NCBI GenBank assembly: GCA_918797485.1
Contig: CAKKNE010000006.1
Location: 1,736,001 to 1,800,000 of the forward strand
Length of the DNA: 64,000 nucleotides
From: Pelagomonas calceolata
Lineage: Eukaryota
Direction of reading: 5' to 3'
The notes beneath the pieces were generated by a model. That model made no database searches and was not told the origin of the DNA. It was given only the letters and a program-made list of their open reading frames with translations. Both the position numbers and the translations under genes were made by a program. The first letter of the stretch is position 1; the number at the start of each line of letters is the position of its first letter. This document shows positions 22,701-37,165 of this stretch, in pieces.

Positions 22701-25700
22701 GGAATATCACGCTTACGAGAAGCAGCTTCCGCCGTCGGAACACTTGAGCTGGAATTAACAGCAATGGTACAAGCAGCTGATGAAAAACGAGAGCACAGTG
22801 AGGCTATCGCTGCGAGGGTGGCATCTGAAAAGATGATTGTGGAGCGAGAGACAGATAAGGCAAATAGCGAGGCTGCGAAAGTGGCCAACATTCAAGGAGA
22901 AGTGCAGCTCCAGAACGAAGATGCCGAGCGTGACTTGCTTGCTGCTGAGCCTGCAATTCGAGCTGCCACCGCAGCTCTTGATACATTAGATCGACGAGAC
23001 CTAGGTAGCTGCAAGACAATGGCCACCCCGCCGAGCGGCGTTGAAGATGTTTTTAGTGCAGTCTGCGTGCTGTTGGCTGGGATAAACCCAGCAATTGCCG
23101 TCCAGCGCAATGGCAAGGTGAAAAAGGAGGGTCGCAGTTGGGATGCGTGTAAAAAGTCACTGCTCGGTAATATCAATGGCCTAGTTGACGAACTGAAGCA
23201 GTATAAAGCTCTTATAGATAAAGAATGTGTCCCAAAAATTAATTTTAATGAGGTAAGACCATACCTGCAGATGGACCACTTCAATGAAGATGCAATGAAC
23301 AAAAAAAACTCAGCGGCAGCAGGCCTGGTAAAGTGGGTTGAGAATATTGTTCGTTATTATGACATCTGGCAAGATGTGGAGCCTAAGCGTATCAAAGTTG
23401 TTGAGTCAACACGCCAGCTAGAAGCAGCTAACTCAGAGCTAGCTGTGGTGCGCGGAAGAGTCAATGAACTCCAGGCACAACTGCGACAACTTACTTCTGA
23501 ATTTGAGCAAGCTGAAAAAATTAAAAGAGAAGCAGTAGATATTGCAGAAAAGGGCCAACTTAAGCTCGAATTAGCCCAGCGCTTGATCAATGCTCTGGGC
23601 TCTGAGGAAGTAAGATGGGTAAAAGGCGTGGAGCGATTTCGTTTCGAACGAGACCCACTGGTTGGAGATGCTCTTGTGGCGGCTGCATTTATTTCGTTCC
23701 TTCCAGAGTCTCATGTTTTTCTTTGCGTGAATTAGGAAGCCCAAGCGTGACTTGCATTTCAGGTATTGTAGTTTGCGGTGCACTGAGTATTATTGTTTTT
23801 GCCAGCAGCAAAAAAAGTGACTTTTGAAATCAACTTCACTTTGTCAGACCCGCATCACCACACACAATTTTCACTTCGTGCGATACATCGCATTCATCAG
23901 TATACTTTAGGTGGCCCATTCAACAAAAAGTTTCGAGATGAACTTCTCCTCGAATCGTACATACCGTATCTACAAGTAGCTGTAGCAGGCAATTCTGTGC
24001 CCATGCGCCAACTCGATGCTACAACAACAGTTGTGACCTTAATTGCCACTGAAGCGGACGTCGCAGGCTGGAATTCCCAGGGACTCCCCCGTGATCCGGT
24101 CTCCTCCGAGAACGGTGCTATCGTCACTGCCTCAACGCGCTGGCCACTAATGATTGACCCGCAGCTCCAGGGGGTAGCCTGGGTCAAGGCACGGGAATCT
24201 GGGCGTTTGCAGGTACAGAGACTTGGACAGACAGAGTTGATACCTGGGCTGCGATCAGCTATGGCTGGAGGTACTACTATTCTTATTGAAAATATTGGAG
24301 AGCAAATCGACGCAGTCCTGCTGCCCCTCCTGCAACGCGCGATCTTGACAAAGAGAGACCATCAATATATTGCCCTCGGCGATGATGAGGTAGAATATTC
24401 TCCAGGCTTTCGACTTGTCCTACACACAAAACTCTCAAATCCGCCAAACCAGCGCATTATAATTTCCCTCGTAACCACGTCATTGTATCCAAATGGCATT
24501 TAGGCACTATCCTCCAGAGTTGCAGGCCGAACTGACGCTTGTAAATTTTACGGTTACACCCCTTGGGCTGGAAGACCAATTGTTAAGCCTTGTAATCAGG
24601 AAGGAACGCCCAGACCTGGCAGCCAGGAAAGCAGCTGTGATCCACCAAGCGAATGAATTTAAGGTCAGAATCAAACAACTTGAGGATGACATTCTAGTGA
24701 AATTAAGTACAGCAGAAGGTGACATTACAGAAGACCGCGCGCTCATTGAAGGATTAGAGAGCGCCAAGCAACAGAGCCTGGACGCATCGGCAAGACTCAG
24801 TGAAGGGAAGGAGATCAGCACTTCCATCAACAAGACTGCAGAAAGATACCGAATGGTAGCAAAGCGAGGAGCCACGATTTTTTTTCTGATGAATTCCCTA
24901 CACTGCATCCACACGTAATTTGGACCTGATACTTCACTACCGCGATCGCGTGTAAAATAGGTACTACATTTACAGCTTGAATTCATTTGTGGTTATGTTT
25001 CTGCATGGCATTGAACTAGTGCATGATACAGAGCGCAAAGCCAAAGCACCTAAGAAACCCAAAACCATGCTTTCTAAATTAAAATCAGTGACTGCCAAGA
25101 TCATTCAAATGCAACGATTCAATTGGAATGAGGATCTACTCCATCAATCTTTTCTTGCAGGAAAACAGGATTTCCTTTCACTCAGCACACGAGCACTTGA
25201 GAAGAAGACCGCGGAAGAAAAGAATGACGTTTCAGAGGAGGACTTCAATCATAGATGCTTGAGTCTTACAGCTTCGATCACGTCGGTTCTTTTCAGGTAC
25301 ATAGAACGTGGAATTTTTGCTCGTGACCTGCTTACAGTGGCAACACTTCTTTCATTCGCAGTAGCCGAAGCTTCAGATACGCTCGAACATTCTTTATTTC
25401 TTTGTTTGCTTTCGCCCGTCAAAGCCCAAGGGGGAGCTGCTGGAGGCATGACTGAAGATGTGGGCGCTTGGTTACCAGTATTGGTTTGGTCACAAATCAA
25501 GGGATTGGAGAAAGGGGCTGTCGAAAATATTGGATTGGTTGCATTTGAAGGGCTGGGGGATCAAGTGAATAGTGATCCAGATGGATGGCACAAATGGTAT
25601 GAGCATCCAAAACCAGAAACGCAGCCACCACCAGGGGGTTTAAAGTCTATTACTGGGATCTCTATGCTAATTTTACTACGAACTATGCGGGCTGACAGAA

Positions 25701-27730
25701 TCCCAGCTGGACTACAAGCCTATGTTGCATCTATGCTAGGCCCCGCTTTTTCTGAGCCACTGCCTTTTAACATGCTGGACACATACACAGAAAGTTCGGC
25801 CTCGACTCCAATTTTTTTCGTGCTTTTCCCCGGTGTAGACCCTACACCCTGGGTGGAGTTGCTGGGGTCAAAGTTTGATGTCAACTTGCGGAAAGGGACA
25901 CTCAGAAACATTTCTATGGGCCAAGGACAAGAATCACCCGCGGAAGCAACGCTTGATGTGATGGCAAAGCAGGGAGGTTGGATCATGCTTCAGAACATAC
26001 AGCTGATGGAATCGTGGCTGCGCAGATTAGAACGCAAGCTCGAACTGGCCAGCGAAGCAGCTGCGATGAATTTTCGTTGTTTTCTTAGCGCAGAGCCTCC
26101 GCCGCTCCCACATCTCTGTAACATCCCTGAAAGTCTCTTACAGACTTGTATCAAAGTGGCAAATGAAGCACCAGCAGACTTCAAGTCAAATCTGCAACGT
26201 GCATGGGCCTGTTTTTGTCAAGAGCAGCTGGATGATTGCAATCATGCAACGGAATTCAAAAAATGTCTTTTTGGTCTATGCTTTTTTCATGCCCTGATAC
26301 TTGGCCGCCGTCGATTTGGTCAACAAGGCTGGAGTCGTGCATATGGATTCAACACAGGGGACTTGAAAATATGCGCAAATGTACTAACAAGCTATCTGGA
26401 TGCGGCACCCGAACACGCAGAGGGGGGAGGTGTCTTGGTTCCGTGGGACGATCTTCGTTACATATTTGGTGAAATTATGTATGGAGGACATATAACAGAT
26501 TTTTGGGATCGTAGAACAAATGTTTCATACCTGCAGTTTTTTTTTAACCAGAAACTCTTGGAGTCAGGAAAACATCTTGCCCCAGGATTTCCACTGCCAA
26601 ATGGCAACTTAGATCACCAAGAATACGCCACTTACATTGAAAAAGCGCTCCCCATAGAAACACCTGTCGTTTTTGGCCTTCATCCTAACGCGGAAATCGG
26701 ATACTTGACATCTACAGGCGAACAAATTTTGGGGACTGTGCTACGCTTGCGCAAAGGCGGAACTTCAATCCCGGATGGGAGTATTGCAGTTGGGGGTGTG
26801 CGTGAGATCCTGGATTCACTAGTAAAAAGACAACCAAAATGCTTTAATCTAATATTGACTCATGAAAAAGCCAAGCCACTTTTGACCAAATCGGTTGCCC
26901 CCTACGTTGTTGTTGCCACTCAAGAGGCCACGCGAATGAATCTTCTTGTTGAAGAAATTTCTCGTAGTCTTGGCGAGTTGCACAAAGGCTTAAATGGCCA
27001 ATTGAATATGTCCCAACAGATGGAAGACCTATCCACGGCATTGTCGCTTAATGAGGTCCCAGGCCGCAATCCATTTCACTTAGCATCTTGGGAAAAGTTT
27101 GCTTGGCCCAGCAGAAAAAATCTTCAGCATTGGTTTTGTGATTTAGAGCGGCGCATCGAGCAACTCGTGAATTGGGAAGAGAGACTTGAATTACCTCGGT
27201 CTTTGTGGATGAGTCTGTTCAACCCCATGGCATTTCTCACAGCTGTACAGCAGGTTGTGGCTCGAAAGCGAAGTCTGCCGCTTGATAATATGACTATTTC
27301 CACCGACGTCACGATATATCGTCGCCCGGAAGACCTCAACTCCTTGATAAACGAGCCATCAGATGGCGCTTTTATTCACGGACTATTCATGCAAGGCGCA
27401 CGATGGATGACAGTCGAGGAAGCAAGCGCAGCAAATCAAACTAGGCTAACTTCTGGTGTAAAATGTGCCGGTGTCATAGTCGACAGTCATGCCAAAGATC
27501 TCCTGCCTCCGATGCCCGTTTTGTATGTCAAAGCGGTCTCTGTTGAAGCAGAATGGGAACCCACGTCAATCGGTTATCTACGTCCAAACATGTACAATTG
27601 CCCATGTTATTATACTAGTTTCCGTGGTCCCACGTATGTATTTCTTGCCACTTTGGACACAGAAGAACCCGCCACTAAGTGGATCAATGCCGGTGTAGCT
27701 TTGTTGTTGAGCTCAGACGATCACCTCTAG
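13703..27730 (+). CDS. Axonemal outer-arm dynein heavy chain with N-terminal Kelch repeats, IPT/TIG and filamin-type Ig domains (alpha-HC/ODA11-like), about 25 exons
   Basis: Kelch repeats (ARSGHTL..FLFGG, ARWRHSA..IIFGG, PRGGHSA..FIFGG), IPT ([10 protein letters not shown]) and filamin ([15 protein letters not shown]). Motor motifs: P1 [81 protein letters not shown]. Confidence 0.95.
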
Positions 27731-28139
27731 AATTTTTGGTGAACTATCGCTCATCCATCTTCCTAGGTTCAAAGTTAGACATTACTATAGTCTTATTCTT
27801 TCAGGTGGTCTGGCGGCGTGGACGAAGACCGCGCGGCAAGATGCGCCGGACCCTAGGCTTCGATCTCAAGTCTGCTTGTTCACAGTATGCTCACCTACCA
27901 GCAATCATGACACCAAATGCTCTGCTCTCACCGTGACTAGCCGCTGCCTGAGGCCCCGGGCCCGGCTAGGGGTGGGGACCGGCAGTGCTGGTAGATTAAG
28001 GGTAGGTCACATCCCACGTCGGGTAGTTTAACATATCCCGTCCGACGGGATATGTTATACGGTTGGTAGCGCTTACTACCAACAAGCTAGGTTGCCATTA
28101 ACCGGTTAATAACCGGTAATTTACCCATTATTACTCCTC

Positions 28140-28460
28140 GGAGGGGATCTGGGGTAAATAACCCGCTCAATTACCCGACGGGTTTTCGACTAAACCCGTT
28201 TAGTGAGATTAGCGAAAGTCCCCTCCCGGACGAGCGGATGGGCGCAAGCAGCCCGTTGAGCTTTTGTATACGTACAGGTGCGCCAAGGCAAGTACCAAGT
28301 CATGTGGCCCGGCGCGGCCGCCCAGGCCCGCGCCAGTGGCCCTTGAGGCCCCCTCCCCTACCCCTCTATAAGATCCTGAGGTAAATAACCCGTATTAACC
28401 GGTAATTACCCGGGTCACGGTAATTACCCCCGGACGGCGCCTGGGGTAATAACCCCTCAG
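28140..28460. repeat. Dispersed repeat family D (inverted copy split across ~33913-34150 and ~34430-34455)
   Basis: cccctcccctacccctctataagatcctgaggtaaataacccgta(t/c)taaccggtaattacccggg and gagcggatgggcgcaag occur at 28230-28415, and as reverse complement at 33950-34100. Confidence 0.85.
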
Positions 28461-28476
28461 TTAAATGCCAACCTAG

Positions 28477-29364: not shown

Positions 29365-29394
29365 CGGGTTCGGGTTCGGGTTCGGGTTCGGGTT
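29365..29394. repeat. (CGGGTT)5 microsatellite
   Basis: Five exact tandem CGGGTT units about 230 bp upstream of RPB2. Confidence 0.9.
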
Positions 29395-29619
29395 TTACAC
29401 GGCGCGCGACCCCCTAGTCGCTCCCGCTCCTCCGGGACCCATCCGTCGGGCTAGGACAGAGTAAGGTGGTCGCACGGACCTCCCGTCCAGAGCTCGCGGG
29501 TTTCTACGTCGACAGCTGGCCATTGTGGTCTGCCGTCGTCAGTATTCTTGCTTTTAAACCTTTAGCAGCGCAACGAAGCTGGAAATATAGTAACGTAGGT
29601 AGGCTGGAATCTGCTAAAG

Positions 29620-32600
29620 ATGGACATCACGCAAGAGGTATTCTATATAAATTTTGAGCGTATATTAGCGACGATATTCTACGTGCTAGGACGCTTGGAC
29701 TGTGATCAGTGCATATTTCGCGGAGAAGGGCCTTGTGCGTCAACAACTAGATTCGTTCGATGAGTTCATACAAAACACGATGCAAGAATTGGTGGATGAT
29801 AGTGGTGAATTGCACGTGGAACCAGAGGCACAATACCTGCCTGGCCAGAAGTCATTGCATCGAAATAAGTTTACGGTGGTATTCAATCAAGTTTACGTCT
29901 CAAAACCAACAGCAACTGAACGGGATGGGACTACAAGTAACATGTTCCCTCACGAAGCACGACTGCGCAATATGACATACTCGTCACCCATATATGTTGA
30001 TATTAGCTGTATTGAACCAGAATCGACAGCTACACTGCACCAAGGCTGCCAGGCAGAACTTTACATAGAAAATGACTGGTATCCTTGCGTAGTTGATGAA
30101 CTCAAGTCTGGGCGTGCAAACGTTACCTATGAAACTGCCGGGCCACTCCAAGACAGCGATAAAGTGGTAATTGTCAAAGAAAGCGACGTAGAAGTTTCTA
30201 GCCGCATACGGTTACCGAGTGGCCTAGCTAAGGCACATAGAACAGATTCTCCAAAGGAGTTTTTGGGCTATGTTCCAATCATGTTGCGTAGTCGTTTCTG
30301 TGTTCTTGCTGATAAATCCGACAGGGAACTCTGTGAGCTTGGCGAATGTGTTTATGATCAAGGGGGCTATTTTATCATCAATGGCTCAGAAAAGGTTGTG
30401 GTAGCACAAGAGCGCATGTCTAACAATCACGTGTACTGCTTTAGAAAGAAGCAGCCTCACAAGTAAGCCGCACTACTACTTTACTTTGCTATTTATCTAA
30501 TATCACCCTTTATAGATACTCATGGGTGGTTGAATGCCGTTCCCATGTTGAACATGGTGCTCGACCAACTAGCACCGTATATATGCAGATGTATAACAAG
30601 GCAGGTCGTGGTCAGTCTCAAGGCAATCAAATCAGGATGACATTGCCATATGTTCGCGTAGACATTCCTGTGATCATTGTCTTTCGCGCACTAGGTTTTG
30701 TTGCAGACCGGGATATCCTCGAGCACGTTGTTTACGATTTTTCAGATACAGACATGATGGAACGGCTACGGCCATCTCTGGACGAAGCGTTTGTGGTTCA
30801 GAATCAAACGATTGCCCTTGACTTCATTGGGCGCAGAGGAAGTGCCACGAACATTGGACGCTCTAAGCGTGTACAGTATGCAAAAGAATTACTACAAAAG
30901 GAAGTTTTGCCACATGTTGGTACAGAAGAGCAATCGGACACGAAGAAGGCTTTTTTTGTTGGCTACATAGTACACAAGTTGCTCATGTGTTCACTCGAGC
31001 GCATTGATGAAGATGATCGTGATCATTACGGCAAGAAGCGGCTGGACCTAGCTGGGCCATTATTGGGTGGCTTATTCCGAATGTTGTTTCGTAAACTTAC
31101 CAAGGATGTTCTCGCTTACCTACAAAAATGCATTGACGAAGCTCGAGATTTCAATCTAGCGTGCGTTAATTATTCTATATAGTAAATGATTTTATTGATG
31201 TTAAAACTCCACAGCTCCGCAATTAAATCTCGACTGATTACCGACGGACTGCGATATTCTTTGGCCACGGGAAATTGGGGCGACAGAAAGGATGCGTCAC
31301 GTGCTGGAGTTTCGCAAGTGTTGAATCGATTGACCTATGCATCAACTCTCTCTCACCTTCGGCGATTAAATACCCCTCTGGGACGAGAGGGTAAACAGGC
31401 GAAGCCAAGGCAGCTACATAACACACATTGGGGGTTTATCTGCCCAGCTGAGACTCCAGAAGGACAGGCAGTTGGTCTCGTAAAGAATTTGGCATTGATG
31501 GCATATGTATCAGTAGGTAGCCCTCAAAGTCCTATCCTTGAATTTCTTGAGGAATGGTCGATGGAGAATCTGGAAGAAATTTCACCACAGACAATAGCAG
31601 ATCCGGGGACGACAAAAATATTTGTTAACGGTAGCTGGATTGGTGTGCATCGTGACCCATGTACGCTTGAGGCTACCTTGAGGTCTCTTCGTCGACAAAT
31701 TGATATAGATCCCGAAGTTTCTGTAGTACGTGACATCAAGGAAAAGGAACTTAGGGTGTATACGGATGCAGGACGGGTCTGTCGACCACTTTTGATTGTT
31801 GAATCAGATCATGCATCTACGTGGAAAGATCCACTGAATCATAGTTCATCTAGTCCTGCACAAAAGCTCAAACTACGCAAGCCCCACATTCATAAGTTAG
31901 TCAATGGTGAGTTGGGATGGACGCAGCTCCTGGTTAAAGGTCTGGTGGAGCTGGTTGACACGGAGGAGGAGGAGGCAACCATGATTGCAATGATTCCATC
32001 TGACCTGAACGAACCATATTCCTCAACATATACACATTGCGAGATCCATCCTTCAATGATACTTGGCATTTGTGGGTCTATTATTCCATTCCCTGATCAT
32101 AATCAATCACCTCGCAATACATATCAGTCGGCAATGGGCAAGCAGGCCATGGGAATTTATGCATCGAACTTTCAGCAGCGCATGGATACCTTAGCTCACG
32201 TGTTACATTACCCACAGAAGCCATTAGCAACGACACGAGCAATGGAACATCTCCATTTTCGTGAACTTCCTAGTGGTGTTAACGCGATTGTGGCTATCAT
32301 GTGCTACACGGGATATAATCAGGCCCCCTCCAGCGCCCTTTCTTCTTTAAAATCAGGTCCACTGACTTTATTGTTGATATGCAGGAAGACTCCCTGATCA
32401 TGAATCAAGCAGCGATTGACCGTGGCCTCTTTCGTTCCTCTTTTTATCGGACTTATGTGGATCAAGAACGCAGTCACGTGACTGGCGACGCTGCTGGACT
32501 TTACTGTGAAACTTTTGAGCGGCCTGGTCAAGACCACTGCGTCGCCATGCGGCATGGATCATACGAAAAAGTTGACTGTGATGGCCTTGTCTCTCCGGGG

Positions 32601-33636
32601 GTGCGTGTATCCGGTGCTGACATCCTGATTGGGAAAACAGTTCCTGTACTAAATGGAGGTGAAACAAGTGGCTTAGTAAAACGCGACTCCTCGACTGCAA
32701 TGCGTCCTAATGAGTCTGGCCTAGTTGATCAGGTAATCTAAGTTGCAATTGCTATCATATGAATGCCACCTCCTGGTAGGTCATGTTATCGACAAACCAA
32801 GATGGCATGAAGTTTACCAAGGTAAGAACACGCTCTGTCAGGATCCCGCAAATAGGAGACAAATTTGCCTCACGGCACGGGCAAAAAGGAACCATTGGCA
32901 TGACCTATGCTCAAGAAGATATGCCATGGACGCGTAATGGTATATCACCCGACATTATCGTCAATCCACATGCGATTCCTTCACGCATGACGATCGGCCA
33001 TTTGGTAGAATGTTTACAGTCTAAAGTAGGTGCTCTTACAGGTAAAGAGGGAGATGCCACTCCATTTACGGATGTTTCTGTTGATCACATCGCTGCTGTT
33101 TTGCACGAACTTGGCTACCATCGTCATGGAAATGAAGTCATGTACTCTGGGCATACAGGACGAGCAATTCATGCCAAAGTTTTTCTAGGCCCAACCTTTT
33201 ACCAACGGCTCAAACACCTCGTTGACGACAAAATCCATGCTCGCTCACGTGGTCCTGTTACAATGCTCACACGCCAGCCCATGGAAGGCCGCGCACGAGA
33301 TGGTGGTCTTCGAATGGGTGAAATGGAACGAGATTGCCTCGTCTCTCACGGCGTTTCTAGTTTTTTGCGTGATCGAATGTTTGCAAATTCTGACCCCTAT
33401 GCCATTCACATTTGCACTTGTTGCGGTCTAGTCGCCCATGCTGATTTGCGGAAGCATATTTACTGGTGTAACAACAAAAATTGCCAGCGTGCCGCCAACT
33501 CAAGCGTCGTGCGTGTGCACATTCCATATGCTTGCAAGCTTCTCTTCCAGGTATGGTGCATTTCTTTTCTCAATAACTCACCTGATATTGGTAGGAATTA
33601 ATGGCGATGTGCATTGCACCACGAATCTGCATCTGA
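29620..33636 (+). CDS. RPB2: RNA polymerase II second-largest subunit, 7 exons
   Basis: [115 protein letters not shown]. Confidence 0.97.
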
Positions 33637-33912
33637 GGATACTAATCAAGCCCGGCTATATTAATCATACCCTTGTTAATCCTGCCTGGGAATCATATCA
33701 AAGGAAGATAGGATCAAAATCAGAGGCTCTAGGCCAGCAAATAGATTGCGGGTGTGCACGGGACTAGCCATTTATGTCCGCAGCGTGACTACTAGTCCCA
33801 CTTTGACGACCACGAGAACGGGGATGGTGTTGGCGGCCCCCGGGCCCAAACACCTGACTAGCCAAAGTTCTTTCTTTGTGCGGGGCGCGCCCGGGCTGCT
33901 AGGTTCCCACTT

Positions 33913-34150
33913 ACCTGAGGGGTTATTCACCCCTGGCGCCGCCTGAAATAACCCGGGTAATTACCGGTTAGTACGGGTTATTTACCTCAGGATCTTATAG
34001 AGGGGTAGGGGAGGGGCCCAATGGGCCATTGGCGCGGGCTTGGCGCACCTGCACGTATCCAAAGGCACAATGGGGGCTACTTGCGCCCATCCGCTCGCCC
34101 GGAGGGGTCATTTTCGCTAATCACACTCAGGCTAAACGGGCCCGGGTTTT
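33913..34150. repeat. Repeat family D, inverted copy
   Basis: Reverse complement of ~28195-28460 with short insertions (CTCAGG at 34126, CCCGGG at 34141). Confidence 0.85.
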
Positions 34151-34480
34151 GCTTTGCCAGCCCGGGCCTGAGTGCATCGCCCTAACTTGAACCAAACGAA
34201 AGCGTGTCGTGCGTCGTTGCTGTGGGCGAAACGCCGACGAGGAGGCGCTGTTTGGAGCAACCTGACGAGCACATAGGCTGTGGAGTCTAAGACAAAGCTA
34301 AAGATAAATCACTGGCGATTGAGCCCCGACTCGGACTCGGAGCCTCCAGAGCTCGCGGGTTTCCACGTCGATAGCCTAGGGCCTGAGTGAAAACCGTTTA
34401 GTGATTAAGTACCGTGACCGGGTTATGACCGGCGGGTTATTCACCCCAGATCCCCCCGGCCCCGGCGGGCCGGGCCTCAT

Positions 34481-34857: not shown

Positions 34858-37165
34858 ATGACATGGGTGTCACGGTCTCTTCGCCGACTTCTTATATCTT
34901 CCTCTGTGTACCGTGCGAGCACGTCTTGTCCGAACCAGTGTAGCGGCCACGGCGAATGCACAGCCGAGAACGTGTGTTTGTGCGATACTGGTTGGGCATA
35001 CTATGCTGACTGTTCTGGTCGTGCGGCGACGGCGCCCTTATGGGGTACACTTATTATTTAGTGAAGAGTACTCACAGGTCTTTGTCCAATTGCTACTGCG
35101 TGGGTCGACAAGGCTAGCGCTCCCGGCAGGGCGCATGGTGACATGGAATGTGGAAACATAGGCGTATGTAATCGGAACGACGCATTTACCTGCGCACAGA
35201 TTAGTTATGTTGATTGCTTGCGTGATTTTGGTTTTTAGGGGAGTTGCTCATGCCCACCTGGTTTTACGGGTGAAGCTTGCCAGCGCTGTCCATCCCCAGT
35301 GTTACTAATTTATCTAGATGTTAGATGCCAATACCGTAGTTGAATGTCCTCAAGAGTGCAGCAACTATGGCAACTGCATCACTATGCACCATGCTGCACT
35401 AGACTACGGCCCTGGGCAGGGCATGACCCAGCTTGATGATGTGAATGACATAAAGGGCCCTTTATACACCAATTGGGAAGCAGAATCTCTTATGATGTGC
35501 GCTTGCGATTGGGGGGTATTTGGGCCTGAGTGTGAGGCACGCATGTGCCCCAAAGGTTTCGATCCTCTTCTGAGAAGTACTACGACTTACTATCGCGAGA
35601 TTAACGTGACAACAAATTCAACAGCAGTAGGATCAAGCATCAATGGAACGTTCGTGATGAGTTTCAATGGGTTTGACTTTGAGTTCAACGCCAATGCAAC
35701 ACTCTTTGGCGAGGCAGAATGTGAAGCAGCCTGGGAATCGCTAGACAATGTTGAGCAAGTAGTTTGCTTTCGTGGTGCCATAAATCAAGCAGGGGGTGCT
35801 ACTTACAACATTAAATTTCTAGCTTGGCCTGCAGTCCCAATGCAGAACAATATCTTTAGCCACGAGGGCAATCCACCGCTCACAGCTTTTACGTGTGACG
35901 CATCTGATGCCAGAGTCTGGCCACGTGGCGGCGGCAACGTCGCTGCATGTCATGTTGAGGATGTTGCGAATACTGATATTCGCGAGTACAAGTTCTGCAG
36001 CGGCCGCGGTACCTGCGACTTTTCTACTGGATCATGTAGCTGCTATGCTAATTTTGAGGGTGTTGCTTGCGGCAGCAGTATTGCCACTATTTCAGAGGAG
36101 GGCGTTGATGTGTTGCTACTGTATGCAACTGAGAATTCATTTCAAAATACTCTGCTGAAGTTAGACGCTACTGCTAATCCCTCAGACTCGTTTAATTTTC
36201 TTGAGATTGTTTCTGGTAGTAGTGAGGTGACCATGTTTACAATCGAAGGGGACGGGGATATCACGGTTGCTAAGGGCGATGTGAAGATTCTCACGGGCGA
36301 ACTATCGTTATACTCCGGTCTTCGGATCATTGATGGAGGCGCAAGTATCACAACAGGGGGTCTTCGCGTCCTCTCCGGAGGTACTACGATCAATGAAGGT
36401 GGCCTAAAAGTTATTGGCAATACGCTTTTGTGGGGCAATGTTTTAGCTCACAACGGATCATACATTTTCTCCTCGAATGCAAGCGGACACAACGATGGAA
36501 GTATTATGGAGGTTCGTGCAACACAGGACGCATTTGCTGGTGCTGTTCTTGAAATTGGCGCAGACCGCAATAGGTCAGACTCTTTCGACTTATTTCGCGT
36601 AACAGTAGACAACGGACCATCTTCTCGTGAAGTTTTTGCTATCACAGGTCAGGGTCGCACCACAATCAAGCATGGCGGTCTCACCGTGACGGGAGCTGCT
36701 GTTGTCAAGTCTGGCGGTCTACTAATTGAAGCCGGTGGCATAACTATCACATCTGGTGGTCTGACTATCTCCAGTGTTGGTATTACATCTGCCGGCTCCA
36801 TCACTGTGACCACTGGGTCCATCACGGCTCCATCGATAATCAGTACCGGCGGAGTATCTGCTAGCAGTTACACAACCACTTCAGACGGACGTTACAAGAC
36901 AAATGTCACTTCCCTGCGGAATCGTGCTGCTCGCTTGCTGGAATTAAATGGCGTGAGCTTCCAATGGCGAGGCGATTCTGGGTTCGACAAAGAGACTCAT
37001 TTTGGATTCATTGCCCAGGAGGTGGAGCTTGTTTTCCCAGAAATTGTCAGAGAAAGCAGTTTTGGCATCCGTTCTTTGCAGCTCGAAGCGATTGCGCCCC
37101 TTCTCGTTGAAGCCTTTCGCGCCTTGCACCGCCGCTTGACCATTCTTGAACGTAGACTTCGTTGA
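34858..37165 (+). CDS. Secreted EGF/tenascin-like (mastigoneme SIG/Ocm-type) protein with Gly-rich beta-repeat region and C-terminal peptidase S74 (intramolecular chaperone) domain, 4 exons
   Basis: CPNQCSGHGEC..DCSG|LCPIATAWVD..ECGNIGVCNRND|GSCSCPPGFTGEACQR|..CPQECSNYGNC..CPKGFDPL..CSGRGTCD; then (GGLxIxxG)n repeats; then SDGRYKTNV..LNGVSFQW..GFIAQEVELVFPEIV..IAPLLVEAFRAL and a coiled-coil end. Confidence 0.85.

Follow-up and report, generated by a model that had tools for sequence, protein, structure and literature searches.

The beta and beta-prime subunits of bacterial RNA polymerase have lineage-specific domain insertions, and Pol I and Pol III have built-in TFIIF-like modules. In the alga Pelagomonas calceolata the second-largest subunit of RNA polymerase II (RPB2) likewise has an extra module, predicted to be folded and situated at a factor-binding site on the polymerase surface, but its fold and origin are different, as it is a putative eukaryotic chromatin-type barrel inside RPB2 itself. 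The closest described systems are the Agenet/Tudor domains, such as those of FXR1/2, ZGPAT, PHF1/19, TDRD3, SMN and ADCP1/AGDP3, which the insert resembles in predicted fold and strand order (structural Z scores of 6.6-7.5), in the pattern G-x-x-A-E-x...W-Y-P-C...V-x-Y...R-x-R and in a weak Pfam match. Unlike the Agenet/Tudor readers, the insert is present as a single copy in a core Pol II subunit, and the first and fourth aromatic residues and the acidic/Asn partner of the methyl-binding cage are missing. In having an incomplete cage with its first aromatic replaced it is similar to the first Tudor domain of SETDB1 (TD1) and the Tudor domain of Drosophila Polycomblike (Pcl). The Tudor domain of LBR, also a structural match, reportedly binds histone H3 in a methylation-independent manner. 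The SETDB1, Pcl and LBR domains, however, belong to proteins of chromatin or the nuclear envelope and mostly have other readers next to them, whereas the insert is in a polymerase. The KOW domains of Spt5 and NusG belong to the same class of small beta-barrels (Z 5.6-6.9) and act on the polymerase's upstream face, but they are part of a separate factor, whereas the insert is acidic and its sequence relatives are Agenet/Tudor proteins.

A full-text literature search outside subscription journals returned no description of a Tudor domain in RPB2. The main text of a 2026 survey of elongation-factor domains names neither Tudor, Agenet nor pelagophytes (PMC13289920), and the accessible portions of PMC7994806 and PMC13175633 contain nothing further on the protrusion loop in which the insert is found. 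The insert is real and apparently unreported, a domain insertion specific to one lineage in core Pol II and a variant of known parts. Few eukaryotic proteins are as conserved as the core subunits of Pol II, and an RPB2 with an entire folded domain inserted in it is unusual.

The window, the whole 64,000-nucleotide stretch of P. calceolata DNA that was analyzed, contains the RPB2 gene at 29620..33636 on the forward strand. The gene has seven exons (29620-29637, 29690-30462, 30516-31160, 31215-32322, 32385-32732, 32780-33550, and 33595-33636), the joints of which are present in RNA contigs, and its spliced translation of 1234 aa has no internal stop and is identical to a database protein (P0122). 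RPB2 chains in the PDB match the window protein with E-values of 1e-46 to 1e-57, compared with ~1e-24 for RPC2/NRPD2; the gene is Pol II RPB2, nearer to Pol II than to Pol I, III or IV. The Pfam domain RNA_pol_Rpb2_1 (E 9.8e-52) was matched in two stretches which flank the insert on both sides, and the motifs quoted in the initial annotation share one open frame (29690-30463, +), which bears out its claim of an in-frame insertion in RPB2. The whole expanded protrusion loop, residues 112-192 (30005..30247, +), is made up of the inserted barrel, its two linkers and the strands of the native hairpin; all of it is in exon 2, and neither border has an intron.

The RNA check that the initial annotation had called for agrees with this assignment. 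In the RNA contigs of four runs, which come from three studies, six short introns of RPB2 are spliced out; these introns are 44-62 nt long and mostly AT-richer, and intron 4 (32323-32384) is of the GC-AG type, with a GC donor. The spliced contigs of these four runs (X3, X9, X11, and X13, two of them recorded as poly-A RNA and two guessed to be RNA) cover 29688-30462 with no gaps and no differences (4/4 runs), which refutes an intron for the major transcript. No joint across the insert was found in any of eight RNA runs, of which only these four span it in full; the contigs of the other four (X15, X17, X18, and X20) cover it partially, with no difference listed inside it. Contigs drop rare variants, and a minor insert-skipping isoform could escape them. 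The insert is an exonic, in-frame, transcribed part of RPB2.

The initial annotation gave the length of the insert as about 75 aa; between its own anchors we counted 84 aa (107 minus 23), while with our anchors the loop is 87 aa, whereas a count from the alignment with a mammalian RPB2 chain gives 21 aa. Among the best 120 of 2863 RPB2 relatives found, eight (P0002-P0009) have a loop of 77-88 aa. The remaining 112 of these 120 are insert-free: 101 of them have a loop of 10-53 aa, with a median of 33, 11 were unparsed, and a profile of the insert matched none of the 112. When the profile was searched against 1.84 billion representatives there were 20 matches, two of which are further insert-bearing RPB2 fragments. 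A word-seeded profile search, in which the top 7993 candidates were scored, returned 12 matches, all RPB2, consisting of the eight known proteins and four fragments with 77-98% identity to the window protein. From 38 proteins we parsed 16 distinct barrels, a count that leaves out P0208. No second copy of the domain was found within the 64-kb window.

AlphaFold modeling, fold searches and Pfam Agenet delimit a putative Tudor/Agenet-like barrel at residues L122-P182 (30035..30217, +). DSSP applied to the AlphaFold model assigns its approximately 60 residues to four strands (model positions 16-21, 24-34, 37-45, and 54-63), followed by a helical turn and one last strand, both short. The initial annotation had allowed for the segment being disordered; instead, the model, built from an eight-sequence alignment, is a beta-barrel with a mean pLDDT of 80.8 that rises to 93-95 over the first three strands. 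Confidence is lower (pLDDT 73-85) in the variable loop that joins strands 3 and 4 (30140..30181, +), which is longer in the Pelagomonadales-type group than in other carriers. In a full-length RPB2 model, the C-terminal half of which is poor, the barrel has a pLDDT of 87-91 and the linkers 68-71, and the native hairpin strands are kept (83-95 and 167-181 in the numbering of P0002). On these models the barrel is predicted to fold independently and to be suspended, via two flexible linkers, from the native hairpin, which stays intact, at the protrusion tip.

The leading structural matches to the barrel model are the Tudor domains of FXR2 (Z 7.5), ZGPAT (7.4), FXR1 (7.3), and PHF1 (7.2), which superpose with an rmsd of 1.9-2.7 over 51-54 residues, followed by those of LBR and TDRD3 (both 6.9), although Z scores below 8 may reflect nothing beyond a common arrangement. 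Tudor domains head both structural match lists; a NusG KOW domain (Z 6.9) is level with LBR and TDRD3, and Spt5 KOW domains are at 5.6-5.8. Foldseek gave no match to the barrel model at E 0.001 (best E 0.05). The structural tie between Tudor and KOW is resolved toward Tudor by the sequence kinship of the insert with Agenet/Tudor proteins. Pfam Agenet (PF05641) was identified in six of the eight members, with a best E of 3.3e-5; the window copy itself scores 15.8 bits (E 0.021) against a gathering cut-off of 27 bits. Of the 18 non-RPB2 matches to the insert profile, several of whose E-values are sums over repeats, 15 carry Tudor-, Agenet- or chromo-like families (11 of them Agenet), mostly as tandem repeats, and one carries a KOW family, while no KOW family was listed for the eight insert members in Pfam at E up to 10. 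Together, the model and the sequence matches point to a Tudor/Agenet-like (Royal family) barrel in the RPB2 protrusion, as the initial annotation had proposed.

Single-sequence searches were less informative, with Pfam returning only OAF_C (E 0.059), which was rejected, and a phmmer search of the PDB returning no match at E up to 10. The insert profile matched Tudor-SN in the PDB at E 0.2, ranked under viral VP17 (0.093), and the ESM Atlas provided no usable match for the insert, although its Rpb2 clusters scored 0.77-0.78. The closest free relatives, P0190 and P0201, also have the C-terminal R-x-R motif, and the donor was probably a tandem Agenet/Tudor-repeat protein of the kind closest to the insert, the cage having been lost later.

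A methyl-Lys/Arg reader, the function suggested in the initial annotation, requires comparison with a known cage, which in TDRD3 is formed by Y566, Y573, F591, and Y594 plus N596 (PMC3281842). We derived the register from range starts (model position 10 = TDRD3 555) and sequence alignment, with no residue-by-residue superposition, and in it Y566 corresponds to model position 21, i.e. I132, provided that strand 1 is ungapped. We take SMN W102 to fall on position 21 as well. At this first cage position (I132, 30065..30067, +) the residue is non-aromatic, I or V, in 16/16 variants. In an alternative register based on Tudor-SN (HMMER) the first aromatic is at position 19, which is L, I or V in 13/13, and a tyrosine at position 20 is restricted to the close group of the window protein (3/16). 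The second (Y137, 30080..30082, +) and third (Y153, 30128..30130, +) positions are each Tyr in 15/16 variants, each tyrosine being missing from one variant (P0009 and P0191); the Chrysocystis copy is without the second. In 53BP1 the acid two residues after the third aromatic contacts the ligand. The equivalent position and the fourth cage position (T155-A156, 30134..30139, +) are acidic in 0/16 and aromatic in 0/16 variants, respectively, and the residue five after the third aromatic is mostly Pro, with Asn in 1/13. As the 16 variants were selected by motif, only the non-motif positions are informative in that set. By comparison, among 15 free relatives, counted after P0193, P0196, and P0203 had been left out as unrelated repeats, position 21 is F in 5/15 and the +2 position is D or E in 8/15.

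The aromatic cage is half lost: the two tyrosines are retained and the first and fourth aromatics are not. In SETDB1 TD1 the first aromatic is replaced and the two that are left form an inactive, incomplete cage, as confirmed by mutation, and the domain does not bind methyl-lysine (PMC5727127); the Pcl Tudor domain is likewise described as having an incomplete cage and not binding methyl-lysine (PMC7725500). Based on the half-lost cage and these parallels, a canonical methyl-Lys/Arg reader, with two of its four aromatics and no acidic partner, is unlikely.

All named carriers of the insert are pelagophytes: Pelagophyceae sp. CCMP2097, Chrysocystis fragilis, and the sequence cluster which holds Aureococcus anophagefferens. 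The named pelagophyte non-carriers are Aureoumbra lagunensis and Chrysoreinhardia sp., in each of which the loop has 20 aa, and the other non-carriers listed are diatoms, oomycetes, brown and yellow-green algae, a dictyochophyte, plants, and animals. In RPB2 trees built without the loop, from 28 and 15 selected rows, CCMP2097 branches first, the window alga is in the clade containing Aureococcus, and Aureoumbra plus Chrysoreinhardia (100/99) are placed beside the Chrysocystis clade (86/91), within the carriers. This nesting of non-carriers among carriers suggests that the insert was probably gained once in the pelagophyte ancestor and lost at least once, in Aureoumbra and Chrysoreinhardia. However, an AU test did not reject a tree in which all insert-bearing RPB2s form one clade (p 0.17), so ancestral gain plus loss is unproven by RPB2 alone. 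In a published six-gene tree the Sarcinochrysidales are a major lineage with both families and Chrysoreinhardia is grouped with Chrysocystis (PMC12168098), a topology on which a loss, possibly two, would also be required. The insert marks most of the sampled branches of an abundant marine algal class, for which Aureoumbra and Chrysoreinhardia provide natural loss comparisons.

The RefSeq model of A. anophagefferens (XP_009040276.1, P0146) is without 61 aa of the domain. Since P0144, P0148, and P0139 share its flanks but contain the domain, and one of them is from a transcriptome set, the gap is likely an annotation error, although a minor isoform is conceivable. That this reference model skips the domain may explain why the insert went unnoticed. 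As a separate observation on the genus without the Tudor insert, the RPB2 of Chrysoreinhardia (P0177/P0179/P0187) has a 340-aa intein-like segment (~938-1274 of P0177), with a Cys at its start and an Asn at its end, before the conserved SRHGQK motif.

The site of the insert suggests a partner for it. The loop corresponds to the yeast Rpb2 segment from K133 (left anchor), and in yeast there are high-confidence cross-links from K133 and K148 to Tfg1 K333, Tfg2 K279, and Tfg2 K142, that is, to the dimerization domain of TFIIF and to the Tfg2 linker (PMC2810376). According to PMC7111264, the protrusion borders the upstream DNA exit, is contacted by DSIF, and has an extension of LEO1 inserted beside it. 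The net charge of the barrel is negative in 15/16 variants, the exception being the Chrysocystis copy (net +1), and its acids are concentrated on the first hairpin, with acidic residues in 12/16 and 14/16 variants. The native loop is also net negative, in 93% of the 101 insert-free RPB2s. We favor, at a probability of about 0.5, the reading that the insert is a module which docks a basic segment of another protein regardless of methylation. A barrel from an Agenet/Tudor-repeat protein would have entered the protrusion of RPB2 at its outer hairpin loop, likely in the ancestor of the pelagophytes, and then lost its methyl cage, and its acidic face would bind a basic partner passing this site. 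TFIIF, through its dimerization module or the Tfg2/RAP30 linker, is the best candidate because it cross-links to the same loop in yeast, followed by an unmodified histone tail or an elongation factor. Such docking would tune initiation or elongation in a dispensable manner, and the absence of the insert from Aureoumbra and Chrysoreinhardia indicates that it is not essential. At the least, the TFIIF-contacting protrusion loop is shown to tolerate a domain of 60 residues, and as the domain is small and predicted to fold alone its ligand should be cheap to test.

The alternative that fares best, although it is improbable in our estimation, is that the insert is a folded passenger, a Tudor repeat which entered a tolerant surface loop and has been kept because it is harmless, with no partner. 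The residues G125, A128, E129, W136, C139, R178, and R180 are invariant in 13/13 loops chosen by length, but these are mostly core or turn residues, and across carriers the barrel is only 37-65% identical, compared with 78-92% for the RPB2 core. Invariant residues of structural appearance together with a fast divergence of the barrel would also be expected of a passenger under folding constraint alone. Moreover, in the close variant P0209 seven of the eight real changes over 254 aa are within the 81-aa loop. This faster divergence, the loop-biased changes, the loss in two genera and the one basic copy keep the passenger reading alive. On the other hand, the insert persists in all the main sampled branches although Aureoumbra and Chrysoreinhardia are viable with a loop of 20 aa, the barrel has diverged less than the linkers that hold it (10-48% identity), and both tyrosines and the first-hairpin acids are retained in most variants.

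It is doubtful that pelagophyte Pol II has a hard-wired chromatin-type reader, in which the RPB2 barrel would bind histone tails, a modified CTD or an elongation factor by the upstream DNA exit. If true, transcription would be coupled to nucleosome handling without a separate adaptor. Nothing in our analysis supports reading of the CTD, which the initial annotation had raised.

We similarly consider it unlikely that the barrel is a non-canonical methyl reader, whose two tyrosines, aliphatic first position and nearby acids would form a shallow pocket, perhaps completed by a partner, for low-methylated Lys/Arg on histones, the CTD or an elongation factor. Its Tudor/Agenet ancestry, the conservation of Y137 and Y153, the presence of the known readers PHF1 and TDRD3 among the best fold matches and the position of the protrusion at the upstream DNA exit are all compatible with such a pocket; the two aromatics and the acidic/Asn partner missing from all variants, the inactivity of the same pattern in SETDB1 TD1 and the existence of a variant without each tyrosine argue against it.

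A KOW/NusG-like clamp on upstream DNA or RNA would be consistent with the Z scores of the NusG and Spt5 domains and with a site near upstream DNA, but we consider it very improbable given the net negative charge of nearly all variants and the single KOW family among the 18 non-RPB2 matches. Finally, a stop-free in-frame intron or an assembly artefact is scarcely credible: 14 in-frame GT..AG pairs could excise at least 150 nt and the RefSeq model omits part of the domain, but the RNA runs have no joint there, the true introns are far shorter and mostly AT-richer, and the domain is conserved at the protein level across genera, including in the three Aureococcus-type proteins with the same flanks as that model.

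The surroundings of the RPB2 gene have features of their own. Directly upstream of RPB2, the frame at 24956-27730 (+) resembles the C-terminal portion of a dynein heavy chain. Downstream, at 35318-37165 (+), a 615-aa frame appears to have Cys-rich, EGF-like repeats and glycine-rich, beta-repeat-like text, and its C-terminal end looks similar to a phage tail-fibre chaperone (S74-like). Low-GC regions of the P. calceolata genome have been described to contain rpb2-domain genes, with no mention of Tudor in the accessible text (10.1101/2021.10.25.465678). The surroundings of RPB2 fit these regions in their low GC, short introns and dynein-like neighbor. RPB2 is bracketed by a non-coding repeat in inverted copies (28097-28476 and 33899-34455), whose best arm is 69 nt at 97% complementarity, with further arms of 20-36 nt, and a direct repeat of 31 nt has its copies at 29486 and 34345; these are possibly dispersed repeats of the low-GC regions. 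A short telomere-like run, about five copies of a 6-nt unit, is also present upstream of the gene at 29366-29394.
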